From a virus (lineage: Duplodnaviria > Caudoviricetes): a stretch of DNA of 63,973 bases. Below are positions 15,801-51,007 of the stretch, one piece after another. The position numbers were made by a program, and so were the translations under genes. Every line of letters starts with the position of its first letter. Within the stretch, counting starts at the first letter, position 1. Where the stretch lies: IMG/VR virus record IMGVR_UViG_3300008114_000027, positions 1 through 63,973 of that record; one strand, 5' to 3'. The notes beneath the pieces were generated by a model, which was not told where the DNA came from, did not search any database, and saw only the letters and a program-made list of their open reading frames with translations.

Positions 15801-17101
15801 ATAATCTCGGCCAAGTCCTTCGCCTTCATCTTCATGAAGTCACGGTCTGATCCGAAGAGTGACCTAAGGAAGTCGCCGATCTTCTGCATCATGGTCCTGT
15901 TCTTACGGGCAAAGCCTGCGTCCTGAATCATGTTGGCCATCGCCTGATTGATGACGTCCTCCATCTCAGTGAACCTGTTGGTGGCCTGCACCTCGTCTAT
16001 GTAGGACTTGTTCTCTGGCTTCATGATCTCAGCCTTGAACGCCTTGTATATGGCAGGGTCAACCTTCTCCGCTATCTTCAACCATAGCGAAGACATCGCC
16101 GCTAGGGACGTGCTGCTATTCATCGACGCGGGGTTGATGTATATGTTACCCGACTCTATGACCGCGATGACATTGTCGAACGTGTCGTACACATTCACCG
16201 CGTCAGGGTTAGATGCCGCCGCAGTGTACTGCGCTTGGTTAACCGAGATCGATAGGTCTGGGAATTTCTTTGACATCATATCAAACACCACACCCGACGC
16301 TCCCGCGCTTGAGGATGATCCCCTGCTTGACTTGGTCTTTATCTTTCTGTTCTGCTTGAGCGCTGTGTACTTAGGGTTCTTGAAGGTCACCGTGTTGGCA
16401 ACCACCTTCTCGATAAGTATAGGCTTCTGTGGCTTGATAGACTCGGCACGTAACGCCTTGCCGCTTCTTAGCTTCCAGTCAGCCACCACCATGTCGAACC
16501 CTTTGTCCGCTGCTATCTTACCTACCCATCCCACCTGCTCGTTGAAGTCGAACGCCCTTGTGGGGTGTGCCTTTCTGAACTCCTTCTCTGCCTTTGGCAA
16601 GAGGTTAAGTGGGTCCTCATTGAACGGGTAAACCTTGTCCTTCGGGATGAGCACGGCGTGCTTGAACCCTCCGGTGAAGGACTCCGCAATGTCCGGGTCG
16701 GTGTAGTACATGCTAGCCTTGACGGTGCGTGACGCCTCGTCCCTGCCCGTAGCCCTGTTCTTGCCCAAGAATTTTGGGTCAATGCTTTTCTTTGTAAGGT
16801 CTTGGTCGCTGTAATGGAAGAACACGTAGTTACCCTCGCCATCCTCCACCATCATCGCGTCCTTCTTCGTGCCGTACACGTGGTTCTTCTTTGACTTCAC
16901 CTTGATAGGCGGCAGTGAAGACTTCTTTGGTTCGGCTGCCGTGACAGGCTGAGACTTGAACATCTCGGGCATCTCGCCCTTCATCTTGCTAGGGTCTAAC
17001 ACCCCAGAAGATATAAGGTTAGTGACCTCGCCGTTGTGCAGCATGGTCGCAAACTTTTCAAACGAGTGCTCCTCGCCTTTGTACTTTACCTTACAAGCCA
17101 T
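12854..17101 (-). CDS. Large putative ejected (polyvalent-like) virion protein, 1415 aa
   Basis: Position after the tail genes. N-proximal ART-like segment (FHYS...IDPKFLG...MYYT). C-terminal region reminiscent of LPD38-type domains. Confidence 0.65.
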   Translation of the reverse strand: MACKVKYKGEEHSFEKFATMLHNGEVTNLISSGVLDPSKMKGEMPEMFKSQPVTAAEPKKSSLPPIKVKSKKNHVYGTKKDAMMVEDGEGNYVFFHYSDQDLTKKSIDPKFLGKNRATGRDEASRTVKASMYYTDPDIAESFTGGFKHAVLIPKDKVYPFNEDPLNLLPKAEKEFRKAHPTRAFDFNEQVGWVGKIAADKGFDMVVADWKLRSGKALRAESIKPQKPILIEKVVANTVTFKNPKYTALKQNRKIKTKSSRGSSSSAGASGVVFDMMSKKFPDLSISVNQAQYTAAASNPDAVNVYDTFDNVIAVIESGNIYINPASMNSSTSLAAMSSLWLKIAEKVDPAIYKAFKAEIMKPENKSYIDEVQATNRFTEMEDVINQAMANMIQDAGFARKNRTMMQKIGDFLRSLFGSDRDFMKMKAKDLAEIIAKDLEGNFPISTITSAQLDKLDTEAAMVSVAGGVMDFNATGIGSRYVGNSKNWLVPQRFSSVKSFLSYWFGKGFHSEIRDMNKATENSIKKRMREMQGTAKRFSAQFKKEFKGKTQAEIDAAISHINSLLTGQVQPSTSNIISDELQDIVLGMRQDIDYMSGEVQTYVDPTSNLYGAISNNLGVYMNRSYAAFSNGSWNKAMFPKGLSTAAGQADRSPKMQALYDAAFKFLQSQYPDLDLGSIDSMLAAMARVDKGLDLSEFIRTGGEMGKAMDNMLRKRKDIPDVLRAFLGEYTDPMTNFYNTMANMIHFAENKRFLTGVAAIGKDKIFFDTKSSEFGEQIKGSKNQYDPLMGMYTTPEIADMLGKVDTNYKIPALRKIAAGWKMGQTVFSPRSMVRNFYSNIVMPLANGHVYSLFAKMPKGIKYGFKELGKADDQYLLDLIEAGVIGSGVDSSVMRKVIEEAYGAVNLTIDPEENYKNVFNRVKKALSTVKNASVGVYEMMDNIHRVVQYEAELADVKFMFPSKSKAEQRDMAVSRFKETNIVYDNAPEIVKRLSASPLLGTFPTFVAEAMRVSVTIPLRAVKDINEGAATKNKRQMAVGVKRLTSYGAAVIAVNTIAQLIASACGGTDEDDDDERVIYEGAPKYSRNNTKIVLKKTARGYSMVDLDWMNPFNFMTKAYNAYSNTGEFRPDDSKAGAAMVELLQPFFGEEAVLSVAKEIYTNKDYRGGQITTMNDDLWDLTYNTIGYALDRSKPGFIKSTQDFIAATDVDKNYEKESYKRDVNDELVRHLLGTNVISVDVIRAFGKNVADDFAPRMKDFIQEFKDMEYDAKQKIDKLDYEVGAGKITKEERDAEVGKVLNGIKEHAISRNQDMVTKQVAMNKYAHSLIKVATKGLPYEEQLKNVDEILSRYEYSIGQNITMNQGFKVKKAIELGNIFGGEYYIYDMGEGAYNEMGFVSDETSTAKEKYINYLVAQAADQ

Positions 17102-17104
17102 GTA

Positions 17105-17629
17105 TTATCCGAATAGGTTTTCTTCCAACATAAGTAACTCAAACTTGCTGCCGGTGTTAACGCCGAGCAGCTTGTTTATCATGTCGCTGTACTCAGCAAC
17201 CGCCTCCTTCTGTTTAACTCTATAGTCTTGTAGGAAGTCGAAGACGCACAGGTCGCCGATCTTAAATATCTTTGCGCTTGTGTCCTCGTACTCCTCATAC
17301 AGGGCGTACTCTATATCATACGCCTTGCCTATGATGTCTGTCAACCCCATGAACATTAGGGTAGGCTTCTCAATAACCGGCAAGTCCGGGACCACGTTCC
17401 AGTCTATGAGGTAGTCCTCAATCTTCTTGGCGTGAGCCAGCTCGTCCGTGCTCTCCTTGGCAAAGAACTCGGCAGCCTTCATGAAGCCCACGTTCTTGCA
17501 CCAGTTAGATGCTGATCGGTAGAAGTAGTAGGCCTTGAACTCGTCGCTTAGCCTAGGTAGTAGGAGACTGATGACCTCCTCTGGTAGTTGTACTGGGGTT
17601 GGTAGCATATCTTTTTTTATATTGGACAC
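17105..17629 (-). CDS. Ferritin-like protein
   Basis: E..AYYFY.S...W....G....AEFF..ES.DE..HA.KI..YL pattern, plus EY.LYEEY and FLQDY..KQ.E ferroxidase-type helices. Confidence 0.85.
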   Translation of the reverse strand: MSNIKKDMLPTPVQLPEEVISLLLPRLSDEFKAYYFYRSASNWCKNVGFMKAAEFFAKESTDELAHAKKIEDYLIDWNVVPDLPVIEKPTLMFMGLTDIIGKAYDIEYALYEEYEDTSAKIFKIGDLCVFDFLQDYRVKQKEAVAEYSDMINKLLGVNTGSKFELLMLEENLFG

Positions 17630-20562
17630 TGGTCATTTTTAGATGCCAGCCCTTTGTCTTCTAATTGTTTGTAAATGTACGACATATTATCAATTATATA
17701 TTTAGCGGACGGGCTGTCTGCTAATATATTTTTCAGCTCTTCGTTAGCCTTACGCTTCTTCGCTCCACCCTCTGCCGCCTGCACCTTGTTGTATCCCTTC
17801 TCGTACTGCTTGAACTTATCCTCCACGTCTACCTTATCGGGTACGATCTGGCCGGTGTCCTGCATATCTGTACCCGCTTGGGATGTTTCTTTGAGGGATT
17901 GTTCTACTGCTTTTACAAGTTCGGGATTGCTACCATCTGCTTTGGCTTTATGATAGGCTTCGGCAAGGGATTGTGGCGTAACCTCTCTTAATGTTTCTCT
18001 TTTACCAACATAAGAGTCCGTGATGCCAAGGTGTTTCGCTTCAGGGTTGTTTTCTTTTATTATTATACCGTCAATATTCGTAGACTCTTTAACAATGTCG
18101 GCAGCGACCTCCCACACATAAAACACCACGTTACCAAATCCGCTATTTATGTTGTCATTCACAAAGGACGGAACTTCTATCCCTTCGCTTTCAAGGAGCT
18201 TTTTTATTTTATTGAAACTTGTTCTATTATTTAAACCACGAAGGTCTATATATTTTGAAGTGTCTATATTAAGTTCTTTTACACTACCCTTATTTGCACG
18301 AGAAAACCAAGAGGCGTATTTTTTGTTTTTTGTGTGATAGACTATAGGTTCAGAGTCAACGTCACCAACACCTCTATAAAACACGTCTGTTCCGATTAGC
18401 TTTTTCATTGCTTCGGGACTCCTTTTCACCAATTCTTTCAACGCCTTAGCCGTAGCTTCCACATCTCCCCCTACTACTGCTTCTGCCATAGCTTCTGCCT
18501 TTCCTTCAGACCATACCCACTCCGGTAAAAGCCCCGTCTTCTGTTCAGCAAATACCGTATCTTTAACTGTAGCCTTCCTGTTCTTTTCACCAAACGGACC
18601 GTAGTTCAGCCAGCTGTTTTGACCTCTGGTTTCAGTGGTTATGGCAGCAACTGCCGGACCTGTGAACAATCTAACGTGTGCCTGCCATGCGTTCTCTTCA
18701 CCCCTTGCTCTAAAGGCAGCACCTTCTAGTCCGTGACCGAACGCGTCGTGAACCGCACGGAACAAATCGTTTGCTGTTACGGATTGTTCTTTCCCGTTCT
18801 GATCCTTCCATTTAAGCCCGGTGTCTTGGAGCATAGGGTTGTCTTCAACATTAGCGCCAGTTATACCTTCCGTCCCGTAACCAGCATAGGTTCCGTACAC
18901 CGCCATCTTCTTGTTCTTTCGTAGATCACGCATGGCCTCTGATGGGTTTTCATTATACGGATCCGTTTCATCATCAAAGAAAGAGAACTCATATCCCGCC
19001 TCAGTCAGTGCATCATACTGATCTTTTGTCTGACGAATCAAATCATTATACGCCTCCAATACCTTAGGGTTCTTTGGATCGTGCTTCATTTTTTCGTACT
19101 CGTCAGCTATTCTTTTAGCCCTGTCTACGTCCACTGCAACATACTCCGCCTGTCTTGTAAACGGAATGCCAAACTTCTTGGCATAGTTATCAGCAACACT
19201 TACTAAGTTTGGATCAGGACCTGTCACCCCTTCAATCTTTGGAGCGCCCGGCAGCGGTTCAAACTTCCCTATACCCTTAGATGACTTTGTTTTTATACCT
19301 GCTTTAATAAACGGCACTTGCCCGTGACCAGCCTTACCTAATGCAGATCTCTCTTCCATCTCTGATAGAGGTGTGCCTTTAGAGTCTGTCATAAAATCTA
19401 AAAAGTTCAGCCTGTCCTTAAGCATGTGTATTTTAACCCGCTGACCATCCACTGTTTTCATAACGCCAGCGTAAGCAATGTGACGCCTTTCGCTAGGATC
19501 TTTAGATGACTCATCTTCTAGTTTTAACTTAGAAGGAATTTCAATAACCGCGTAAGCAGATTGAGACGGCACTTCAGAAATGAAACCCTCTTCTTGAATC
19601 TTACCAAAGCTGTCTATTATATCCTCTTTATTTTTAAGAGGGAATCCCAATTTCTTACTTAACGATTCAAAGTTTATAAGATCTCCGTTTGATTTTTTAT
19701 CAAATATATTCTTTATCAAATTTGTAACAACTTGCTTTCTCTTTTCAAAAGATGAAAACTCAGCTTTCATAAACAAATCTTTAATCGATTTGTGCATATC
19801 TTTTCCGCTGATGTTCATTGGAAACAAATCCTTACCAGTGTATCCGCTTGTTTTAACAGCGCTTGACATCGCGTTCCTAAAAACAGATAACGGAATATCC
19901 CCGTCTTCCACCATGTAAGCTATTGTGTCTACAGTTGCAATCATTCCATCAACACTGCTGAGAACCTTCCTGTTAGACCCCTTGCTAACAACCACATACA
20001 CAGGAGGTCCGTTCTTATCGATGGCATCATTTACTTGTTTGATTATACTTCTGGCAATTTGAGGGGTGGACGCCCAAAAAGTACCGTCGTCATTAAATTT
20101 AACCGCGAAGTATATTCCGCCATTACCCTGAAGCACAACCCTGTCCTTGCTTCCTTTTGGCTGTTTAGTTTTCTCGTCGTAAACTATTTCTTTACCAAAG
20201 GATAAATCGCCTACCATTTTATTGTCGGGAACCATCGTAAAAACATTATCAGACCAAGCAAATGAAAACACATCAGCGTTATCTACGATGTAACCCTCCT
20301 CCCTTAACTTATCTAACTTAGTTTTACCTTGCTCATCGGTTAGATCAGCAAATAAGTTTACATTAAACTTACCGCCTACAGAGGACTTTGCTTTAAAAGT
20401 TTTTACAGTATCAACCACCTCCCTTCCTTCCTGCGCCTCAACCTTTGGAGTTTGGTCATACTCGGCAAGTATGTTCCTGTACTCACCGCCCGCAAGCAAC
20501 GACATGAACTCTTCCCTAGTGTAGGTCTTGTTGTTGTATATGTACTTACATCCCTTCGGCAT
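17617..20562 (-). CDS. Large multidomain putative ejected protein, 981 aa
   Basis: FRAVHDAFGH...GEENAW...ETRGQNSW domain, ART-like FYRG...YHT.N..YA segment, and AT-rich internal blocks. Confidence 0.65.
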   Translation of the reverse strand: MPKGCKYIYNNKTYTREEFMSLLAGGEYRNILAEYDQTPKVEAQEGREVVDTVKTFKAKSSVGGKFNVNLFADLTDEQGKTKLDKLREEGYIVDNADVFSFAWSDNVFTMVPDNKMVGDLSFGKEIVYDEKTKQPKGSKDRVVLQGNGGIYFAVKFNDDGTFWASTPQIARSIIKQVNDAIDKNGPPVYVVVSKGSNRKVLSSVDGMIATVDTIAYMVEDGDIPLSVFRNAMSSAVKTSGYTGKDLFPMNISGKDMHKSIKDLFMKAEFSSFEKRKQVVTNLIKNIFDKKSNGDLINFESLSKKLGFPLKNKEDIIDSFGKIQEEGFISEVPSQSAYAVIEIPSKLKLEDESSKDPSERRHIAYAGVMKTVDGQRVKIHMLKDRLNFLDFMTDSKGTPLSEMEERSALGKAGHGQVPFIKAGIKTKSSKGIGKFEPLPGAPKIEGVTGPDPNLVSVADNYAKKFGIPFTRQAEYVAVDVDRAKRIADEYEKMKHDPKNPKVLEAYNDLIRQTKDQYDALTEAGYEFSFFDDETDPYNENPSEAMRDLRKNKKMAVYGTYAGYGTEGITGANVEDNPMLQDTGLKWKDQNGKEQSVTANDLFRAVHDAFGHGLEGAAFRARGEENAWQAHVRLFTGPAVAAITTETRGQNSWLNYGPFGEKNRKATVKDTVFAEQKTGLLPEWVWSEGKAEAMAEAVVGGDVEATAKALKELVKRSPEAMKKLIGTDVFYRGVGDVDSEPIVYHTKNKKYASWFSRANKGSVKELNIDTSKYIDLRGLNNRTSFNKIKKLLESEGIEVPSFVNDNINSGFGNVVFYVWEVAADIVKESTNIDGIIIKENNPEAKHLGITDSYVGKRETLREVTPQSLAEAYHKAKADGSNPELVKAVEQSLKETSQAGTDMQDTGQIVPDKVDVEDKFKQYEKGYNKVQAAEGGAKKRKANEELKNILADSPSAKYIIDNMSYIYKQLEDKGLASKNDQCPI

Positions 20563-20574
20563 ACTTGTATCTTT

Positions 20575-23500
20575 TTAGAGTTCGCAATTTACTTTTAATT
20601 TTCCTTCCTTCACCATAGCCTTCTCAATTTTATCGAAGTTATCTATGATAAAGTCTAGGTCAGGGTTGGTCGCCGCGATCTGGTCGCGTAACCTGCCAGC
20701 CATGATCCTGTCGTCAACGCTCATGGCCGATGCCTGTGCCGCGTCAACGCCTGCTATCTGGGACGCAGACCTTCTAGACTGCTCCCTAACCTTAGCCTTG
20801 CTAACTGGCCTTGACTTTGCCAACTCCTTGGCGCGTTCCTTTGCCAGCCTCTTGCCAGCCTGTAGGTCGATAGCCCTGCCGGCAGCTAGTCCAGATGCCA
20901 TCGCGTTGATGAACTCGACCACATCCTTCTTCGTGGCGCGGTCGCTGAACACGTTCATGCCAGACACTGACCTGAACACGCTGTTCACTATGTCCTTGAA
21001 CTTGTCGACAAGGGTGGTTGGAAGTTCAAGCTCTTTATCCGTCACCGCAAGCTGGGCGGTAAGCTCTGTTATGAACTCCTCGGGAGACGATTCTTTGTTG
21101 TAGTTTTCTTCCGCCCACTTCTTCAACCGGTCGATAGTAGACCCCTCAAACATCTCAAGGACCTTGTCCCTAAACTTAGCATAAACCTCCGGGTCTTGAC
21201 CGAACACCTCGAGCAGGACGTTGTGCACGAACTCGTGCGGTGCTACGGCAGCGTCGGCGTTCTCCATGTTAATGTATATGCCGTACACGTTCCCGTCCTC
21301 GTCGTAAGCAAACGCCCCGCCCTCCTTTGGGTTAAAGTCTTCGTTTCTGCCCTGAGCAACTAACGCGTCGTGCATCTCCCTTGCTGTCTCGAATACAAAC
21401 ACCGGGGTGTCCTTGCCAAATGTTTTTCTGAACGCGCGTGCCGCCTTGTCTAGGTACTCAAGCACCGCCGCCTTCGGCTGTCCCTTGTACTTATCTTTAA
21501 GCTCAGTCTTGCGAGATGGTGTATACTCCCCCGGTTTAGTCGTCGCCGTCTCTGCTACGGGCTGCTGCTTTTCAGCTGCCTTTGGTATTGTAAACGCTTC
21601 AGTTGTAGCTATAGGTTTGATTACATCGCTATCACTAAAGTCCGGGTAAATGTTTTTAAAATTCTCCTTCGCCTGTTTTTCTAATATCTCTACGATATTA
21701 CTTGGAGTGTTTTCATTCAACTCATATGAAGCAAAGGAATAGTTGTCTCGGCCTGCCGTCTTATTCTTTCTTGATGTTGCTAATTTAAGGCCGACTACTA
21801 CATACTTTTTACCACCCTGTTTTACAACCGTGGCAAAGGATGCTTTCTTTTGAACGAGGGCCGCTACTTTTTTAGAAGATTTTGGATTGAACTCTGCGCC
21901 TTTAGACGCCTGCTCTATAGCCTCCTTCTCTTCACGGATCATGCCGACCGCCTCCTCTGGGGTGGCGCCCATCTGTACAAAGGCCGTCGCCGTGTCGAGG
22001 TCATCTCCCTCAAGCGTGTCGTCGAACTCTATCACAGACATCATGGCGTCGTCGTATGCCGCCGCGTTGTCCGTCTCCTCCTCTATTGTTATAGCAGGCG
22101 CGCCGTCGAAGTCTACTTCTTGCGTGCCTTGAACCACTCCACTTGGTGTAGTCGTCTCTGTGCCTGTTCCTTGGTCAGGTTGGTTTTGGACAGTGGTTTG
22201 TTGTCCTCCGACACCACCTGATACCCCTTGCTTGTTTTTCTGATCATCTGATTTTAGGTATGGTTGTTCTACATTAAACTCTTTACTTACCTCCTCGAAC
22301 ACGGTGTCGAACATAGCCTGAGGCGCAAGGCCTATGGTCTGCTCTGCTGCCTTGAGACCCACGTCGACGCTGAGGTCGTCGTCCATGATGGACAGGGTGT
22401 CGCCGTTCGGCAGCTTCATGTTAGCCACGTTGTTCTGGTCAGGCGCCCATGACGGGTTGCTCTCCGTGTTAACGAACTCGGCGTTAGAGTCGATGTCCTC
22501 CTGAGATCCTACAACGACAGCACCCTTGCGGCCTGCCCTGTTGTTGGTACCCTCAGGGACAAACACGTAGTTGCCCTCTGGTATGGTGTCGCCGACGTTG
22601 TCGACCATCTTACCATCGGACATCTTCATCGTGCCCTTCATGCCGTTGTACGCTACGGGTATTCCTTCGGCAGCTGCTGTTCTGACGGGGTTGGCTGCTC
22701 GTTCATTTGCTGCTCTAGCCTTCTCAATAGTTCCAGCTGCGCGGGCTTGGGTAGCTGTGCTACTTTTAGTCTTCGATCTATACTCATAGTTTTCTATTTT
22801 TTGAATCCTTTCTTCTATCACCCGAGACATGCTCAGCTTCTGTTGGTCTGTAAGATCCTCCCTCTTGTCGATGTCGTCCAGCAAGGTGTACAGGTTGTCC
22901 TCTGCGGTGGCGATGTCCTTGTCGTTGACAAACTCTTCGCCCTCCATCATCGTCTCCACCTTGCCTACTGTAGGGTACACGGTTGTTACCAAGCCTGACA
23001 TTACATCTGTCCCAACATCTGTAGGCTCTGGGGCTGGCTGAGCTGCCGTCTCTTTAATTATCTTGTCCTGCTCGTATATAGACATGATCTCTTTGTCGAT
23101 GCTTTCGATATCCTCCTTGTCTAATGGAAGCAGGCCAGTCTCTTTACGTGCGTCTACAATGCTATTCTTTAACTGAATAAGGTTGAACACCCTGTCCTTG
23201 TTATCTCCTGTAAGCTCTGCGTATGACGGTATATTGTTCAGCTCGTTGGCTAATTTTGTTAGCTCACCAAGGTCCTTCATCTCCTCTACCGTGGCACCAG
23301 AGTTTGCCCAAGCCACCTGAATATCGGCGCCGTTCTCCCCCATGTTTCTCAAGGTAGCCTGCTCCTGTGGTGTTCTGTACTTGGTACCAAACTTCATCAC
23401 GCCCAAGAACGCAGGAGGAAGTGATCCGGAAATTCCACTCTCAACAACAGCGCTCATGTTCCACCCCGCGTGAAGTACCTCCCTTCCAACAACACCGTTG

Positions 23501-26328
23501 ACAGCGTTGTTTACTGCTTGGTTCAACACCTCGGATGCGGACTCTTCCAGAAATTCTGGGGCAGCCTCGTTGAATATACTCTTAACATACTGTGGTGCCC
23601 AAGCGGTCACCCCATCCTCAAACCCTTTCTCTCTGATCAGGCTGCCTAAGCTATACCTCTGCGCAGGGTTGAAGACGTCGATCTCGTTGAATAAGCTCTC
23701 GCCTATTCCACTCATGACGCCCACCATGTTAGCTACCACACCAGCTTCTTGCTCGCTCATGCCGCTCTTTAGCGCCTGTCTGTAGGCGTCGCCTTGGCTC
23801 ATAAGGTAACCCTGCATAAATCCGGAGGTGACCTGAGCCGCCTTCATCATCTTCGCCCCGCCGCTCAATCCCTTCACAGCAAGTCCGCCCACGCCACCAA
23901 ACAATATGCTTGTCGCGTAAGAACCAAAAGCCTCAGCCGTCTTGTTCATAAACTTAAAGGCTGAGCTACCCTCTGTAATGCTAGTACCTGACTCTGAGAA
24001 TATAGTATTCAAGTCAGTGCTAAAGTCATATAATCTTTCAGCAAAAACTTCTACAGCCGCGTTTGATCCAGCGCCACCTAACGCCTCAAGGGTTACCTTT
24101 GGCGCCTGAGCAATACTGAAAACTGAAGTGGCTAGCGCTGATCCCATGGTGTCAAACAAGACACCTGCCTTTTCGCTGTACGTCCCCTCCTTTGCTATCC
24201 TATTCCTTTCTGCCTTTGATTTCTCGTAAAAATCCTTTTGTATATTAGATCTCCAATAGTCTTTATCTATAAACTCGTATGCCAGCTTAGACTGACCAAG
24301 AGAAGTGTAGGTATTATTTAAGCTGTTCAGCTTGTCTTCGGTAACGCCAGTGGTCTGCTGTACCTTATCATAATCCTTAGTCAGCGTGTTGTACTGCTCG
24401 TAAAGCCCTTGAAGTTTCTTACTGTTCACTCCCGGTACAAGGTTGCCGTTCTCGTCAAAGATAGAAGAGTACCTTGACTGGACCTCTTTAGCTTTCTCTG
24501 ACGCTATGTTGTACTGATCGATAAGTTCTTGAGCCTTTACTGCCTCGGTCGGGTTCAGGTCCTGCCTCATCGATCCGTCCTGCGCCATGAATGGCTTAAG
24601 CTGCGCTTCAATATTTTGAAGCCCTTGACCTATAGGGGTCATCTCGTCCTTGTACTTGTTGTACTTGACTATGTTCTCGTCGCCAGAAATGTTCAACAGC
24701 TTTGACTGGTCCTTGATCTGCTTCTCTACATTCTTCATGTCGTATAGCATACGCTGACCGTCAAGCTGGAATGTTCTCATGTCCATGGTAGACTCGATAT
24801 CACGAGCCGCCTTGAGATCGCTAAGCTGTCTAAACTGTAGCGCCTCCTTTGTAAACGAGCTTGCAAAATCCTCCTCCTCATAAGACAATTGCTGACCGTT
24901 GTTTCTCTTGTAGTCTATCTCGTCCATTCGACTCTTGTACTGAGAATATCTTGACGGGTTAGTCCCGTTAAGGTACATCATAAAGTCGCTCTCTAATGTT
25001 CTAAACGCCCTGTCAACGTTGCCCTCTGCTCTTAGTTCAGATATAAGACCGCCGCCCTTCTTCTTCGACTCAAGCAATAGCTCGTCTAGGTTTATATTTT
25101 TAAATGCATTGGGCGCATACTTTTGGTATTCAGCAACCTCCTGCATTTTTTTAGAGTGCATGTCGCGCATAGCCTGAACAGACATACCCCTAACCACTGG
25201 AGAGTCTGGGTCTAGATTTATTTCAGACGCCAGCTTAGACCTCTCCTGTATTTTGTAAACATCAAATTGTGAGTACAGGTCTGGCACGTCCTGCAATATT
25301 GTACGAGGTTTTTTATAGTCGTACTCTGTATCACCTATAGTAGGTACATAACCCGGAGAGTATATACCCTTGTCTAACTCATCCTGTCTCTCAGCTAAAG
25401 CGTCAAGATCTTTCTTAGCGCCGGCCAATTTTTTTTCTGCACCAACCTCTCCCGCTTTTACTTGAGACTCATACAGCCTGACCTCTTTTTCTTTGTCGGC
25501 GGTAAGCTCTGTAATCTTTGTGCGACTCAGAGCTTCTGTTGACTCGTCCAAGGGCATGGTAGATGCCAAGGAAGGGTTGATATAATACAGCTGCTTGTTA
25601 AGTAACTCTATCTTCTTTTGATATAGACTAGATATAGGGCCGCCCTCACGCTTAGACATTGCGTCTCCGTTAGATTCCAGCTGCCTAATCTTGCTGTCTA
25701 TTTTTAATATCTCTCGGTCCATAGAGGCAACCTTAGCCACGGCCTCACCAGAAATTCCCTTTAGATTATCAGCTACTGTGCGCTGCATATTAGCTGACTC
25801 TTTCTGCAAGTCAGGAACCTTAAGAGACATGGTGCCGGTCGGCGTGTACGTGCCAGATGGAATATCTTTCTTTTTTACATCGCCTTGATTTTTACCAACC
25901 GCCTGCTGAGACTTCTTTAGTTTTATAAGCTGCTGATTCTCCTGATCGGTGAGCCAGTTACTGTTTGTCTTTAGCGCGCTCTCGTACTTGGACTGGAGGC
26001 GGTCGATCTCCTGCTGTACAGGGTCAGACGTTGCGCCACTCGGTTCTGAAGGCTCGGGCTGCTGCGCTGATTGAGCGCTTGAGCTTGCCGCACCACTGCC
26101 CGAAGGTGAGGCGGGTTGCTTTCCCAAGCCGTACTTAGTTGTGATAGCGTTGTACCTCTCGTCCGTCAGCTCTTGGTCTGGGGCATACTTAGCATAGAAG
26201 TCAAGGAGTAACTGCCTGTCGTTACCCATATACTTGGCGTCAATAGCGGCCAATCTTTCGTCCGTTAATTCCTCGTCCGGCGCATACTTCGTGTAGAAGT
26301 CCTGCAGTAACTGTTTTCTATCTGGCAT
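20575..26328 (-). CDS. Giant putative ejected protein with zincin-like motif, 1917 aa
   Basis: PHEFVH followed by EEFITE near the C-terminus; Gly/Ala-rich hydrophobic mid-region; N-terminal tandem repeat. Confidence 0.7.
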   Translation of the reverse strand: MPDRKQLLQDFYTKYAPDEELTDERLAAIDAKYMGNDRQLLLDFYAKYAPDQELTDERYNAITTKYGLGKQPASPSGSGAASSSAQSAQQPEPSEPSGATSDPVQQEIDRLQSKYESALKTNSNWLTDQENQQLIKLKKSQQAVGKNQGDVKKKDIPSGTYTPTGTMSLKVPDLQKESANMQRTVADNLKGISGEAVAKVASMDREILKIDSKIRQLESNGDAMSKREGGPISSLYQKKIELLNKQLYYINPSLASTMPLDESTEALSRTKITELTADKEKEVRLYESQVKAGEVGAEKKLAGAKKDLDALAERQDELDKGIYSPGYVPTIGDTEYDYKKPRTILQDVPDLYSQFDVYKIQERSKLASEINLDPDSPVVRGMSVQAMRDMHSKKMQEVAEYQKYAPNAFKNINLDELLLESKKKGGGLISELRAEGNVDRAFRTLESDFMMYLNGTNPSRYSQYKSRMDEIDYKRNNGQQLSYEEEDFASSFTKEALQFRQLSDLKAARDIESTMDMRTFQLDGQRMLYDMKNVEKQIKDQSKLLNISGDENIVKYNKYKDEMTPIGQGLQNIEAQLKPFMAQDGSMRQDLNPTEAVKAQELIDQYNIASEKAKEVQSRYSSIFDENGNLVPGVNSKKLQGLYEQYNTLTKDYDKVQQTTGVTEDKLNSLNNTYTSLGQSKLAYEFIDKDYWRSNIQKDFYEKSKAERNRIAKEGTYSEKAGVLFDTMGSALATSVFSIAQAPKVTLEALGGAGSNAAVEVFAERLYDFSTDLNTIFSESGTSITEGSSAFKFMNKTAEAFGSYATSILFGGVGGLAVKGLSGGAKMMKAAQVTSGFMQGYLMSQGDAYRQALKSGMSEQEAGVVANMVGVMSGIGESLFNEIDVFNPAQRYSLGSLIREKGFEDGVTAWAPQYVKSIFNEAAPEFLEESASEVLNQAVNNAVNGVVGREVLHAGWNMSAVVESGISGSLPPAFLGVMKFGTKYRTPQEQATLRNMGENGADIQVAWANSGATVEEMKDLGELTKLANELNNIPSYAELTGDNKDRVFNLIQLKNSIVDARKETGLLPLDKEDIESIDKEIMSIYEQDKIIKETAAQPAPEPTDVGTDVMSGLVTTVYPTVGKVETMMEGEEFVNDKDIATAEDNLYTLLDDIDKREDLTDQQKLSMSRVIEERIQKIENYEYRSKTKSSTATQARAAGTIEKARAANERAANPVRTAAAEGIPVAYNGMKGTMKMSDGKMVDNVGDTIPEGNYVFVPEGTNNRAGRKGAVVVGSQEDIDSNAEFVNTESNPSWAPDQNNVANMKLPNGDTLSIMDDDLSVDVGLKAAEQTIGLAPQAMFDTVFEEVSKEFNVEQPYLKSDDQKNKQGVSGGVGGQQTTVQNQPDQGTGTETTTPSGVVQGTQEVDFDGAPAITIEEETDNAAAYDDAMMSVIEFDDTLEGDDLDTATAFVQMGATPEEAVGMIREEKEAIEQASKGAEFNPKSSKKVAALVQKKASFATVVKQGGKKYVVVGLKLATSRKNKTAGRDNYSFASYELNENTPSNIVEILEKQAKENFKNIYPDFSDSDVIKPIATTEAFTIPKAAEKQQPVAETATTKPGEYTPSRKTELKDKYKGQPKAAVLEYLDKAARAFRKTFGKDTPVFVFETAREMHDALVAQGRNEDFNPKEGGAFAYDEDGNVYGIYINMENADAAVAPHEFVHNVLLEVFGQDPEVYAKFRDKVLEMFEGSTIDRLKKWAEENYNKESSPEEFITELTAQLAVTDKELELPTTLVDKFKDIVNSVFRSVSGMNVFSDRATKKDVVEFINAMASGLAAGRAIDLQAGKRLAKERAKELAKSRPVSKAKVREQSRRSASQIAGVDAAQASAMSVDDRIMAGRLRDQIAATNPDLDFIIDNFDKIEKAMVKEGKLKVNCEL

Positions 26329-45841: not shown

Positions 45842-48181
45842 TTATATTTTACCTGTAATCTCCCTTCCCTGTGCCGCCTGTAGCCTTCCCTCTAAGGTCA
45901 TGGTCTCCAAGTCGGCGTTCTTCTGCGCCTCAATCTCTGCGAGCTTAGCTTGGAGCTTGTCTGAGATCTCCTTGCTCTTCTCGTTCATCCTCATCTCGGT
46001 AAGCATCTGCTCACCCTGAACTCTAGCCTGCTCAGCTGCCTGCGCGGCCTTCATATTATTCTCCGCATTTATTGCGGACATTCTCTCCTGATTCTCCTGA
46101 TTCTTTTCGTCGGCTCTTTGCTCTGCAAGCGCCAGATACCAAGCGGCAAGCTCGTCGTTCCCGTCCTCTAAAGTCTTCTCAACATACAGCGCATCTGCGG
46201 TGTTGATACCCTTCATGCCGTTCCTTCCAGCAGCCAAGCTCTGCTCAATAAGCCCCATAATATAAGCCTTGCGCTGAGCTGTCGTGGTAGCCTTGAGCTT
46301 GATCCCGCACTCGTTAAGTGTCAGATCCTTCAAGCCGTTAACAGCCGAGAAGTATACCGTGCCCAAGTAGCCCTCGTAGTAGTCGGCGCATTTCTTGTCC
46401 GCCGCGATGTTTACTCGTGCCTTCTGAATAATCTTGCGTGCAGCCTTCTCCTTGATACGGATGATAGCCTGTCTTATGTTGTACAGCGCGTTGTTCGTGC
46501 TGTCGAGTTCCATCTGACCAACACCCACCAGCTTCTCTGGTGACGCGTTAGGTGACGCGGACGCCGTGTCTGTTATGCCTGCGATCCTCTTCATCTGACT
46601 CTCGATAAACATCTGGTAGTTAATCCACTCGTCGAGCTGTCTGCCGACACCGTTCTCCAACTCCACCATGGCGTTAGCCCCGCTAAACTTCTGACCAAGC
46701 TCTAGCCTTGTTGCGTAGAACTGATTACCCGTCTCACGGCGGATACGCGCAATCTCAAGGGCGCTGACCTTGCCAAGACCTAAGTCCATGTTAGCAAGTA
46801 GTCCCACGTCTATAGCCATACCCTTCGGAGCTGCCGCAAGTATTGCCGCCCTTAACTTTAAGGTAGCTATCTGCTGGTCGTCAAGAAGACTCTGCCATCT
46901 CTCGACCACAGACTTGCCCGCGATACGCTCGCTGAAGTATGAAAGGGCGCAGCTGCCGTCGCCGTTCTTGATCATGTTCTTCTGTAGACCGTAGTCGTAC
47001 ACATAACTAGAACCAACAACCCAGCACCCCTCGTATATATTCTGCTGGTATACCTTGTCCGTCTTTCTCTCTCTACCGTCCGCGTACTTTGTCTTCACGC
47101 GGTCCTCTTTTTTGTACACGTAGTTGCCGTTGCCGGTCTTTCTACCAACATACAAGTTGAAGTCGTCGGTCTTGTACTCGAAGTCTAGCACGTCTACAAG
47201 GAAGTCGTACCATGTGTACCTCTGTGTCACAGGATCCTTTGATGTCCACGCGTAGTTTGTAGGGTCGCTAATATTATTTGATGTGCTGTACATCCTAGCC
47301 AAGCCTTCAAGCTCCTTGTCCGATAGACCCGGCAGCTTGTCTTTTAGCTCGTGAATAGGTACACGCTTTATGTAGCCGGCAAACGGAGGCTCAGCCTCAG
47401 GGTTGTCGTCGTCCCACACCGTGATGTACATTGACGGGTTTATATACTTGACGCCAACGGCGCCTGTATTGTTAACGTATATCCTTCCACATATAAAGGA
47501 TGTCTGCAAGGCAGAGTCGATCATCTTGTCGCGTACCTTGTTCCAGTCGCTGATATCAAATCCGTGCTCCGCGATCATCGACAGTCCAACCTCTATAGGC
47601 AGGCGTATGCCGTGATACTTCTCATACAGCTCCATCTCTGACTTGCTCTGTGGCTCCCAGTCCGGTGTCTTGTATGGTATACCAAGCTCCTGCTTCAGCG
47701 GGTTGGTGACCTTGGCGTCTATGTACATTTTCCACTTGATCTTTTCTTTAAGATACTTATCTGACTTGGATGTGGAAGACACGACGACCTTGTAATCACT
47801 CTGCGTTAGCAAGCCCTTTATTACGCTAATCAATAGCGGGGCGCTGCTCACGATGCTGTTCTGGTCAAAGCCTATGTTGTTGTAACCCTTTCTTGTATTC
47901 TCGTTGTAACCGTCTGTCCCTGCGGAGTTCGGTTTGGAGATCTCTCCACGGTATATCTTCTTGTACTTTAATGTACTCTGTCTACCCTCTGAGTAACTCT
48001 TGAGCATATTGAAATAGCCAAGGTTACCGTACACCGTGCCGCCAGAACCGTATGGTATAGGCGCCGAATACCAGCGGCCGTATATAGCCTGAGCTGCTGA
48101 CACACCCCATGCCATGTCCTTCTTTTTATCGGGCGAAATTGAGTCTGATGGGAACGGTGAAATCTTTCCAGTAGGTATCAT
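45842..48181 (-). CDS. Portal protein (779 aa)
   Basis: N-terminal FPSD.ISP..K, IAGIT....ASP and LVGVGQM....TNNA motifs, C-terminal coiled coil; follows TerL. Confidence 0.8.
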   Translation of the reverse strand: MIPTGKISPFPSDSISPDKKKDMAWGVSAAQAIYGRWYSAPIPYGSGGTVYGNLGYFNMLKSYSEGRQSTLKYKKIYRGEISKPNSAGTDGYNENTRKGYNNIGFDQNSIVSSAPLLISVIKGLLTQSDYKVVVSSTSKSDKYLKEKIKWKMYIDAKVTNPLKQELGIPYKTPDWEPQSKSEMELYEKYHGIRLPIEVGLSMIAEHGFDISDWNKVRDKMIDSALQTSFICGRIYVNNTGAVGVKYINPSMYITVWDDDNPEAEPPFAGYIKRVPIHELKDKLPGLSDKELEGLARMYSTSNNISDPTNYAWTSKDPVTQRYTWYDFLVDVLDFEYKTDDFNLYVGRKTGNGNYVYKKEDRVKTKYADGRERKTDKVYQQNIYEGCWVVGSSYVYDYGLQKNMIKNGDGSCALSYFSERIAGKSVVERWQSLLDDQQIATLKLRAAILAAAPKGMAIDVGLLANMDLGLGKVSALEIARIRRETGNQFYATRLELGQKFSGANAMVELENGVGRQLDEWINYQMFIESQMKRIAGITDTASASPNASPEKLVGVGQMELDSTNNALYNIRQAIIRIKEKAARKIIQKARVNIAADKKCADYYEGYLGTVYFSAVNGLKDLTLNECGIKLKATTTAQRKAYIMGLIEQSLAAGRNGMKGINTADALYVEKTLEDGNDELAAWYLALAEQRADEKNQENQERMSAINAENNMKAAQAAEQARVQGEQMLTEMRMNEKSKEISDKLQAKLAEIEAQKNADLETMTLEGRLQAAQGREITGKI

Positions 48182-48616: not shown

Positions 48617-51007
48617 TTAGTCATACATCTCTATAAATCCGGAGAAGTCAGATGACGTGTTATCTTTTTTTATCATATCCGGGTAAGCACTCTCAGCCCC
48701 AAGCAGCGCCATGCCGCACGCCGCGAAGACGTCGAGGTCTGTCATGTCGCTAAAGCTCTGTGCACTCTCGATCTCCTCGAGCAGCTCTATGTGCCTTGCC
48801 CTGTGACCCGTGTTCTTCACGTAATCACCGAACTTGGCAAATATCTTTTCTTGTACAGCTGGCCCGGTCCTCACCCCCGGGATCGGGTCGATCTTTCCAG
48901 TGGTCGGGTCGATCATGTGCATGAGGTATCCCTCCGCGTGGTGATCCCTGAAATACTTTATGACGTGCGAGACGTTACGCTCGGTGTTCACCATCGCGCC
49001 GCAGTACACTGCAGCAAGGAGCATGTCCTCGCAGTACTCATCCGTAGTATCCACACGGTTGTTGTAGGTCATGACGAAGTCGCCGGTCACGTGCTCCAGC
49101 GGGTCCTTGTCGCTCCCGTCCACCAGCGGGTCGTTACGCATGTACATGCCTCCACCACCGTTAGACTTCTTCTTCCCGCTGACGTCCTTGGTGTCGTAGC
49201 TGAACGGGTCACACCCGAGTACATACCTTCCCACCACATCCGGGCTTGGCCTGTATGTCTGGTTACGGTCGTCGTACATGTACTTGTTTGTCATCTCCGG
49301 TATAGGGCGCAGGCTTATTATCCACTTGCCGGGTTTAGCTGGCGTGCCGTCCACTATCCTAACAGAAGACCAAGGGCCGTTTACCCACTCCAAGTTCACG
49401 CTAACCGTCCTCTTGTCCCCAAACTTCAATGCGCTGATCCTTCCCTTCAGCACCCCCATGTCCCAGTAGTTCGAGCGGTTAGCCTTTCGGCCAGCTTCTC
49501 TTAGGTTCCACGGGTTGTTCCTTATCTCGTTGTTCAGAGAGTTCCAGTCCTTTATCTCCTCGTAGTATGCGCGGGTTTTCTTGAGCGTGGACTTTGCGCC
49601 CTCGTCAATAAGCTGACCCTCCAAGTTCATGTAAGGCTTCTCAGGATCCTCTATCACAGACATGCCGTACATGTCTACCCTTCCGTCGTACCCGTCGTAT
49701 GCAGGGACAAACAAGGTCACCAAGCCAGAGGCTGTGATCCCGTTGTCGTTCCTCTTGTGGGAATAAGACTTCACACACAGCTCAAAGTACTCCTTACCAC
49801 CGCCGCTCTCGAACTCACCGAACGTTGACGTGTACAGGGCAAAGCCGTGTATGTTCTGTCCCTGAGCGAGTGAGTTTCTTATGGTGTCGGTGAACTCGTG
49901 GAAGACATTCCCAGACTGCTTCTTGCCCGACTCGTCATTCAGGTAGGCGTGCAGCTTGTTACCGTCGAACGCCTTGTTGGCTGACGACCTTGGCCTGATC
50001 CACCCGCCATGCTCCACCGTGTCCCCGGAAAACGTCACGCTTCCCTTCTTGGTAAACACGAGGGCGTTGGTGTCTGCGGTAGAGGCGCACGGTTTCAAGA
50101 ACCATGGGTAGTGCCTCCAAGGCGCGAGTATCTTCTTCTGGTAAACGTCCTCGATAGCCGTGTCCTCGGTCAGCGCCTGTATCGCAAACGTGCCAAGCGA
50201 ATTGTCCACGGCTATCCTCATGCCCACGTGCGATCCCATGAAGGTTGCACCGACACGTCGACGTTTAGGGAAGACCACGCCGAACACTGTCCTGTAGCCC
50301 ATGTCAACGTAGTAACCCTCGTCATCTAGGATGTAGGAGTCTATCGCCTCGGTACGGACAAACTGTGCAGCGGTTGCCTTGTTGTTAAAATATTTCTGCC
50401 TTACACTAGTGCCCTTCCTGTAGGTGAGGACATACTTGAACTTGGACCACGTGGTGGTGTAAGCCCACCTAAAGAATATAAATATCCTGCGGTCCACGTC
50501 CCGGTAATCCGGAAGCCTGTCCCTCCTGTTGTCGTTGTCGATCGGGGTGTAGCACAAATAGGTGTAGTGCCATCCGTCGATGTATGTAGGCGTGCCGTTG
50601 ATGAAGCACCAGTAGCCACGTCTTGCCCGGTTATTGGTCGTGCGTATGAACTCTATCTCGTCCTTATAAAAAAGAGGATCGGACTCCACCTCGTCGAAGT
50701 AGTCCTCCGGGAACAGCTTATCCTTAGCCTTGAGGTTTCTCTTCCTCCTGATAATCTCCTCTATACCCTTGAGCTTGGCGGGCAGGGCAAAGAACTTATT
50801 GTTCCGGTAATGGTCAAAGGTCTGATCCTCTGGCGCCATCCCGTACCCGTCAATCTCTTTTATCGCCTCGTCCCATGGCTTACCAAAGAACGACTCGACT
50901 GAGGGCAGCTCCACGCGGATAGCGTTCTCGCCGCCAAGGTCCGGGTCATCCTCGTTGTACATGACATGGGCCTGTTCCTTTTTATATTTCTCGTGGTGCT
51001 GTGACAT
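48617..51007 (-). CDS. terL: Terminase large subunit
   Basis: KRRRVGAT (Walker A type), YLNDESGK (Walker B), YTST, nuclease LGCDPF, NTERN and D.DVFAACG. Confidence 0.85.
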   Translation of the reverse strand: MSQHHEKYKKEQAHVMYNEDDPDLGGENAIRVELPSVESFFGKPWDEAIKEIDGYGMAPEDQTFDHYRNNKFFALPAKLKGIEEIIRRKRNLKAKDKLFPEDYFDEVESDPLFYKDEIEFIRTTNNRARRGYWCFINGTPTYIDGWHYTYLCYTPIDNDNRRDRLPDYRDVDRRIFIFFRWAYTTTWSKFKYVLTYRKGTSVRQKYFNNKATAAQFVRTEAIDSYILDDEGYYVDMGYRTVFGVVFPKRRRVGATFMGSHVGMRIAVDNSLGTFAIQALTEDTAIEDVYQKKILAPWRHYPWFLKPCASTADTNALVFTKKGSVTFSGDTVEHGGWIRPRSSANKAFDGNKLHAYLNDESGKKQSGNVFHEFTDTIRNSLAQGQNIHGFALYTSTFGEFESGGGKEYFELCVKSYSHKRNDNGITASGLVTLFVPAYDGYDGRVDMYGMSVIEDPEKPYMNLEGQLIDEGAKSTLKKTRAYYEEIKDWNSLNNEIRNNPWNLREAGRKANRSNYWDMGVLKGRISALKFGDKRTVSVNLEWVNGPWSSVRIVDGTPAKPGKWIISLRPIPEMTNKYMYDDRNQTYRPSPDVVGRYVLGCDPFSYDTKDVSGKKKSNGGGGMYMRNDPLVDGSDKDPLEHVTGDFVMTYNNRVDTTDEYCEDMLLAAVYCGAMVNTERNVSHVIKYFRDHHAEGYLMHMIDPTTGKIDPIPGVRTGPAVQEKIFAKFGDYVKNTGHRARHIELLEEIESAQSFSDMTDLDVFAACGMALLGAESAYPDMIKKDNTSSDFSGFIEMYD

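Follow-up and report, generated by a model that had tools for sequence, protein, structure and literature searches.

The DNA analysed here, referred to below as the window, is the whole of the IMG/VR virus record IMGVR_UViG_3300008114_000027 (Duplodnaviria; Caudoviricetes; 63,973 nucleotides), and it appears to be the complete genome of a podophage-type virus. Its structural genes form a block on the minus strand, which is headed by the terminase and portal genes and closes with three giant genes encoding proteins of 1917, 981 and 1415 aa (amino acids), named P0001, P0002 and P0003 in this order. This report deals with a pair of small, cysteine-bearing modules found at the ends of these giants, and with the coupling that they may provide between them. 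An earlier note on this DNA, made from its letters only, had quoted the ends of the three open reading frames (ORFs) and proposed that they chain the proteins head-to-tail; the ORFs and the quoted ends were all present as given, on the minus strand. Profiles of the C-terminal module (C-module) and of the N-terminal module (N-module) detected exactly two copies of each in the six-frame translated window, only at these ends. The layout read by the note is thereby confirmed: the first protein carries the C-module, the middle one both modules, and the last one the N-module. Coordinates are collected in Table 1.

The likeness of the shared ends was above chance. The two N-modules gave a local BLOSUM62 score of 53; of 5000 pieces of 40 aa drawn at random from the three giants, none reached it, whichever of the two was used as query. 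For the two C-modules the score was 46, a value reached by 0 of 5000 pieces with the end of the 981-aa protein as query, and by 18 of 5000 with that of the 1917-aa protein. Among the 69 ORFs of at least 100 aa in the window, the best non-self terminal match of each module was its proposed partner. The stretches quoted by the note belong to real modules, but were too short: the C-module in fact extends over about 60 aa and the N-module over about 40 aa. The two C-modules of the window are 26% identical to each other, and the two N-modules likewise 26%.

Table 1. Positions of the genes, modules and cysteine codons discussed in the text (window coordinates unless a locus is named).
Feature	Position	Strand	Details
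Terminase large subunit	48617-51007		phrog_6681, E 2e-54; upstream of the giants
Portal	45842-48181		phrog_6547, E 1.4e-58; upstream of the giants
P0001, first-type giant, 1917 aa	20575..26328	minus	without N-module, with C-module; HExxH at residue 1698; sole Cys at 1915
C-module of P0001, last 64 aa	20578..20769	minus	profile match 20581-20766, E 1.7e-15
Cys1915 codon of P0001	20584-20586	minus	third residue from the C-end
P0002, middle-type giant, 981 aa	17617..20562	minus	N-module and C-module; Cys only at 5 and 979
N-module of P0002, first 50 aa	20413..20562	minus	profile match 20419-20562, E 1.2e-16
Cys5 codon of P0002	20548-20550	minus	
C-module of P0002, last 64 aa	17620..17811	minus	profile match E 8.5e-25; AlphaFold2 model
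Cys979 codon of P0002	17626-17628	minus	
Ferritin-like gene, 167 aa from ATG	17105..17608	minus	PF00210, E 3.1e-20; between the P0002 and P0003 genes
P0003, last-type giant, 1415 aa	12854..17101	minus	N-module, without C-module
N-module of P0003, first 50 aa	16952..17101	minus	profile match 16955-17101, E 4.4e-21; AlphaFold2 model
Cys3 codon of P0003	17093-17095	minus	
Loci with a junction ferritin	window 17105-17608; L003-L011, L014, L015, L018, L020, L022-L024	minus (window)	

Relatives were gathered with the first 260 residues of P0003, with all of P0002 and with a profile of each module. This gave 262 proteins, 122 of which carry modules (54 the C-module only, 40 the N-module only, 28 both). 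The C-module spans about 60 residues, has an invariant Pro, Asn and Cys, and is kept down to 26-30% identity; its tail takes the form ...C-x(1-2). The N-module starts M-x(1-3)-C, and continues with a beta-hairpin and then a helix. In P0002 it is preceded by MPKG, which places the Cys at residue 5, and in P0003 by MA, which places it at residue 3. A second, distant class was met in high-GC phages, with proteins ending in ...INC[DKP]. Its C-module is related to that of the first class (hhalign probability 95.4%, E 1.9e-8), while the relation of its N-ends (M-x-x-C, a longer hairpin, a helix) to those of the first class is less certain (hhalign 64%, E 6.5e-5).

An AlphaFold2 model of the P0002 C-module (mean pLDDT 85.3) consists of four helices followed by a low-confidence tail of 12 residues, in which the Cys lies. 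In the model of the P0003 N-module (mean pLDDT 63.3), a hairpin (residues 4-7 and 10-13) is followed by a helix (14-32), with the Cys just ahead of strand 1. In both models this placement of the Cys suits strand addition. Neither module was matched by Pfam, a scan of prokaryote genomes for the modules returned one truncated match only, and a Foldseek search of solved structures with the C-module model found nothing at E <= 0.001; at E <= 10 it listed 21 matches, with no docking domain among them.

Two further kinds of ends were seen among the relatives. Five proteins of 1400-1700 aa (P0089, P0142, P0145, P0166 and P0167), missed by the profiles, start with M-x(1-3)-C and end with ..F-x-C-x on the same chain; if they use the same device, such proteins could close into rings or polymerise. 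A search for loci of a class bearing both ends on one protein brought back unsplit giants only. Locus L024 (3329-3706) encodes a mini-protein of 125 aa with an N-module; its last residues, ..LKQLIDCIWL, resemble a third kind of Cys-bearing C-end, ..LKDLISCLKK, present on several giants. This mini-protein may be a short adaptor link.

Modules were found at the termini and nowhere else. All 68 N-module matches begin within 6 residues of the N-end and all 82 C-module matches finish within 6 residues of the C-end, and no internal copy was detected in the 262 proteins (503,421 residues). On this count, a fused ancestral C-plus-N domain inside unsplit giants was rejected.

The cysteine content of the giants follows the modules closely. 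P0001 has one Cys, P0002 two and P0003 two (3 and 1061), and Cys1061 of P0003 is missing from a 94%-identical homologue. The three giants thus hold 5 Cys in 4313 residues, compared to 1.18% Cys (182/15,376 residues) in the other 64 ORFs of the window. In 112 of the 122 module carriers, Cys is limited to those of the modules (50 of 54 with the C-module only, 27 of 28 with both, 35 of 40 with the N-module only), and these lie at residue 3-5 or, on the preceding protein, 1-3 residues from its C-end. A set of 150 representative P0002 relatives (383,797 residues) contains 78 Cys in total, and 101 of these proteins have none. Thirty-four of the proteins have a Cys in their last five residues and 12 have one in residues 2-7, where about 0.15 would be expected per five-residue stretch from the Cys frequency of the set itself. 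Unsplit giants of cultured phages contain no Cys at all, be it the 3694-aa protein of the Flavobacterium elemo phage or the 1871-aa protein (gp129) of Cellulophaga phi19:3, in which inspection found no modules; one tail protein of phi19:3 has nine. Cys is thus near zero in the relatives, in the giants of the window and in the unsplit cultured giants: by the sequences compared, the class has been purged of this residue everywhere except at the junction ends.

The scarcity of Cys extends class-wide over giant polyvalent or ejection proteins (P0028-P0177; L030 2782-13866; L002 30376-35991), other structural and tail proteins of the same phages being normal in this respect. Directly downstream of the last giant in L005, L006, L020, L022 and L023 there are small, very Cys-rich proteins (11 Cys in 221-222 aa), and the ORF after them has 4-6 Cys and collagen-like G-x-x repeats, in sharp contrast with the giants.

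We then consider gene order at what we call junctions, taken from the DNA around C-modules in viral and metagenome contigs (7 loci came from a metagenome scan), together with the two of the window. Downstream DNA was available for 22 junctions, which form 11 clusters at 70% C-module identity; loci L019, L021 and L025 end at a contig edge and are uninformative. At 22 of 22 junctions, covering both module classes, the next large gene on the same strand after a C-module gene starts with an N-terminal-Cys module. The adjacency check proposed by the earlier note, that a C-module gene should be consistently followed by an N-module gene, was therefore borne out, with module identities across the junctions reaching down to about 26-30%. 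Counts obtained with the class-A profiles are balanced: 2+2 in the window, 2+2 in L001, and 1+1 in each class-A locus with downstream DNA.

In the window, the P0001 and P0002 genes share a reading frame and are separated by a TAA stop and four codons (20563-20577, minus strand). The downstream gene is likewise in frame with the upstream one at other junctions where the two genes follow each other directly, with a gap made of the stop and one to four codons (L012 6193-6198; L013 6169-6174). This shared frame may be the trace of a nonsense split, or may be due to chance. Read-through of the stop codon, joining 1917 and 981 aa, was rejected: the stop is TAA, and both ends are kept as true termini in relatives.

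The frame and the nature of the ends raise the question of whether the terminal Cys are catalytic or processing sites, acting by peptide-bond ligation, by an intein-like chemistry, or after a cleavage that exposes an N-terminal Cys. Some C-ends carry Asn-Cys (GNCP, VNCEL), and a small residue precedes the N-terminal Cys; both features resemble splice or ligase motifs, and the 1917- and 981-aa genes are in frame, as just described. However, the Asn is not conserved (QCPI, VICP and AECP also occur), the modules are too small, none of the 21 Foldseek matches reached E <= 0.001, and besides the TAA stop no recoding signal was seen. Split inteins, too, restore a divided protein by means of matched modules at the C-end of one piece and the N-end of the next, and have a junction Cys; their N-fragment starts with this Cys and runs to the C-end of the first protein, and their C-fragment ends with His-Asn followed by Cys, Ser or Thr. 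The layout differs here, as the Cys is at the far end of the C-module, the wrong one for a split intein, and the N-module has no terminal His-Asn. A processing role is thus very unlikely; split intein, ligase-like Asn-Cys motif and lipobox were all rejected, on layout and poor conservation.

The middle-type proteins also bear on how the ends may be used. Those carrying both modules range from 664 to 1009 aa and have the same ends around variable contents, which fits the suggestion of the earlier note that extra effectors can be slotted into the chain. The same fact could be read at the DNA level, the gene ends being boundary cassettes for the swapping of whole genes by recombination, with no role in the protein; a KKGISSS[RK] linker, repeated at domain borders of one clade, would go in the same direction. 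Such a role is highly improbable, since conservation of the modules at the protein level, with P, N and C unchanged, extends to pairs of 26-30% identity and over two classes; DNA recombination would need far greater likeness. In the window itself the two C-modules are only 26% identical, and the lone-Cys pattern has no reason at the DNA level.

The order of the 981-aa and 1415-aa proteins was given correctly by the earlier note, but the two genes are not adjacent: a ferritin-like gene that it had missed lies between them. The match of its product to PF00210 (73 bits, for a cut-off of 24.5) and its best solved chain (5c6f_A, E 9.9e-16) identify it, by sequence, as a true ferritin homologue. A ferritin gene (about 165 aa) separates the C- and N-module genes at 18 of the 22 junctions, in 9 of 11 clusters, and two of the loci belong to the distant class. 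The four direct junctions without ferritin are the first one of the window, its L001 counterpart, L012 and L013. Among 11 phage copies, 26-65% identical, the equivalents of E17, Y24, E50, H53, E94 and Q127 (Helicobacter pylori numbering), which we take to be residues of the ferritin di-iron site, are invariant; the E130 equivalent is Ala in the copy of the window. Neither the ferritin nor the modules had a match among 50,697 GenBank phage records.

The place of this gene at the junction, in both classes, suggests a link to the Cys chemistry, the ferritin acting as an iron bridge, as an oxidant or as a hub. In one alternative, the link between the giants is iron itself and not a disulfide: the thiolates of docked modules, perhaps of two junctions at once, would hold an iron ion or an iron-sulfur cluster, and the ferritin would supply or buffer the iron, or be the hub on which both modules sit. 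The frequency of the ferritin at junctions, distant class included, and the invariance of its di-iron residues speak for this possibility. Against it, four junctions do without the ferritin, each module has a single Cys and lacks a CxxC, middle-type N-modules do not have the His of the MLHDG stretch, and the ferritin may be a passenger gene, of metabolic use and kept by synteny. On balance, we consider an iron link quite unlikely.

Docking was examined by folding the P0002 C-module together with the P0003 N-module, each with its own alignment. The three runs gave ipSAE values of 0.45, 0.60 and 0.43, compared to 0.01 for the best control, and share at least 81% of contacts, with a partner pLDDT of at least 73. 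The pLDDT of the partner was 74-81 with the cognate chain and 52 with an unrelated one, and that of chain 1 was 61-66 versus 44-46. In the calibration, 58 of 80 solved complexes and 2 of 110 mismatches attained the mark; of these, only 7 of the 80, but both mismatches, did so at values of 0.60 or below. The verdict on the docking proposed by the earlier note is therefore weak support.

Another way to account for the modules is that they do not bind each other at all. Each would be an address or anchor for a third part of the virion (portal, inner capsid wall or core protein), with the terminal Cys as a tether. Short terminal signals for capsid loading are known elsewhere, such as the T4 capsid-targeting sequence and the cargo peptides of encapsulins. 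The weak pass in the complex fold leaves room for this explanation, and Cys is present in the portal (5) and in other structural proteins of the window. Yet it leaves unexplained why the first protein misses the N-module and the last one the C-module, why the C and N counts per locus are equal, and why the gene order is constantly C before N. In addition, both chains gained confidence only when folded together. We regard anchoring to a third partner as unlikely.

The three proteins can be aligned, in their order, along a single larger one. Compared to the 3694-aa elemo protein, a single-chain structural protein of that cultured phage, residues 1684-1820 of P0001 correspond to 1529-1662, residues 142-393 of P0002 to 1748-2041, and residues 66-227 of P0003 to 2074-2232. 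Five metagenomic single-chain giants were matched by at least two of the three proteins, and four of these were collinear, one not. P0001, P0002 and P0003 thus look like pieces of one protein that has been split into genes. A domain in the middle of P0002, at about residues 430-695, is found again inside giants of 2000-5200 aa (4719 matches at E <= 0.001), and the domain at 66-227 of P0003 is found in many different architectures.

Pfam matched nothing in P0001-P0003 at E <= 0.01, and PolyVal and LPD families were seen in relatives only: ART-PolyVal, LPD23, Kinase-PolyVal, ddrB-ParB and LPD38 were found in 5 of the 8 module-bearing proteins scanned. The HExxH of P0001 is a motif without a profile match, and similar motifs occur in relatives. 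Based on the domains of the relatives, on this HExxH and on the collinearity with single-chain giants, P0001-P0003 probably belong to the class that Iyer, Burroughs, Anand, de Souza and Aravind (2017, PMC5512222) call polyvalent. The main text of that paper describes large polyvalent proteins of phages and conjugative elements as giant, multi-domain, and predicted to be packed and injected. The HExxH of P0001 can be likened to their zincin-type peptidase motif; what differs here is that the protein is split over two or three genes, with dedicated Cys modules at the ends. The words 'cysteine', 'disulfide' and 'split' do not occur in the main text of PMC5512222.

Packing in the virion and delivery with the DNA are indicated indirectly, by the place of the genes after the terminase and the portal, and by matches of P0003, in its C-terminal half, to proteins annotated as virion structural in cultured phages, those of Cellulophaga among them (phrog_22602, E 8.3e-24). 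According to a preprint, a protein of 2811 aa with LPD38 is present in a virion proteome, and may be an ejection protein.

A linker, KTKSS[RK]G, was noticed at domain borders in P0002 (residues 424-430; window 19273-19293, minus strand) and in P0003 (255-261; 16319-16339, minus strand). The KKGISSS[RK] linker mentioned above belongs to a related clade (P0007-P0023), and is present at 22 sites in 13 of the 262 proteins. The HExxH peptidase could cut at these motifs, or they could be the points at which domains are shuffled.

In the reading that we prefer, and that we hold to be evenly poised between right and wrong, the pieces of a split giant ejection protein are coupled again end-to-end, by modules that dock and by a Cys-Cys link that can be reversed. 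One giant polyvalent virion protein would have been split into genes, with two matching modules spanning each break. The C-module, a helical bundle with a floppy tail, would dock onto the N-module of the next protein and bring the lone cysteines together. These could then form a reversible link, most simply an interchain disulfide made in the oxidised virion or particle. The product would be an almost linear thread of 1917 + 981 + 1415 = 4313 residues, because each Cys lies within five residues of a chain end, and this thread could be packed and pushed through the portal and the tail in the way of an unsplit giant. The reducing cytoplasm of the host would then separate the pieces. What the sequences show is the modules with their terminal place, the order of the genes, the Cys pattern and the collinear match to unsplit giants; binding, the chemistry of the Cys link and the role in ordered packaging or ejection are what we infer, the last in line with the idea of the earlier note. 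In the window, the divergence of the module pairs at the two junctions would suit a fixed order, and would discourage ring closure of the middle protein.

A fuller version can be formulated, which takes in the ferritin. A thread of more than 4000 residues would be stitched by lone-Cys modules, covalently or via iron, with the ferritin as oxidant, iron donor or hub; the purge of Cys would keep the chemistry specific and the thread linear, and reduction in the host would free the effectors, making a redox-switched coupling for passage through the tail of a virus. Taken as a whole, this version is improbable.

Several observations weigh against the rejoining of a split giant by docked modules. 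First, splitting does not require modules: the cultured Pseudoalteromonas phage vB_Pun_Y3 has, by annotation, a split pair of 3421 and 1027 aa without modules, and there is no Cys in its 1027-aa protein nor in the last 400 residues of the 3421-aa one. Second, many of the 22 junctions are kin by descent, so that their gene order is partly inherited synteny, and the profile of first-class N-modules misses the N-ends of the second class, which are tied to them by the 64% hhalign match and the M-x-x-C pattern. Third, complex folds that pass as weakly as ours are more often wrong than right unless the pairing was likely beforehand, and the interface contacts were not returned by the fold, which leaves no distance between the cysteines. 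Fourth, in a clade of proteins beginning with MACVIT..., near-identical modules are present on the first, middle and last types; judged by their sequences, they would be unable to impose an order, and might let rings or polymers form. A search for loci of this clade found none. As the bacterial cytoplasm is reducing, a disulfide could arise only inside the capsid or once the cell has lysed, and a plain disulfide model leaves the conserved ferritin gene unexplained.

A close parallel for the arrangement is found in modular polyketide and non-ribosomal peptide synthases, in which short docking modules at C-ends and N-ends set the head-to-tail order of giant proteins, and divergent pairs can give specificity. 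The likeness lies in the confinement of the modules to the upstream C-end and the downstream N-end (68/68 and 82/82 for position, 22/22 for order), and the window's pairs, at 26% identity, can be compared with the divergent pairs of the synthases. No likeness to these docking domains was found in sequence or fold, the Foldseek search having the C-module model as its only query. Synthase docking domains are also non-covalent, serve substrate hand-over and not transport, and have no lone-Cys signature, unlike the modules described here. For the mechanism, a parallel is offered by AB toxins such as diphtheria toxin, where two chains are held by one disulfide, passage through a channel takes place unfolded, and reduction in the target cytoplasm brings release. 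This is a likeness of mechanism without homology: here the link would join separate phage proteins end-to-end, and the channel would be the phage tail.

In podophages and crassviruses, large cargo and ejection proteins are, according to the parts of the crassvirus atlas considered here (PMC10172136), stored in the capsid and then extruded through the tail, partly unfolded, ahead of the DNA, and it is suggested there that their exit order is set by packing and mutual interactions. The same parts describe no end-to-end coupling modules, and the disulfides that they report join tail hub and ring proteins. No description of end modules such as those of P0001-P0003 was found in the literature searched. 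Terminal docking pairs as such are known; as far as the sequences tell, what appears to be new is a putative pair of this kind on phage ejection proteins, with a lone-Cys signature.

A standing question about podophages is by what means several huge proteins are loaded and then sent through the tail in a fixed order. If the preferred reading is true, terminal modules that couple through a redox-sensitive link would answer the question of order in simple physical terms, and would explain the near absence of Cys. It would also mark neighbouring giant genes that act as one unit, a help in the annotation of phage genomes, and provide a small natural pair (about 60 aa plus 40 aa) for the reversible end-to-end joining of proteins. 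From the layout one can see how a delivery chain could take up effector cassettes. The conserved ferritin of the junction is a puzzle of its own, which may tie iron chemistry to virion assembly.

Finally, the N-end of P0001, which has no N-module, contains two copies of a repeat of about 30 aa (residues 4-66; window 26130-26328, minus strand), reading ..LLQDFYTKYAPDEELTDER.. in part. Openings of the type Y-D/N-x-G-S/T-x-E/D-D/E-F, similar to this repeat, were seen at the N-ends of many first-type or unsplit giants, and in gp128 of Cellulophaga phi19:3.

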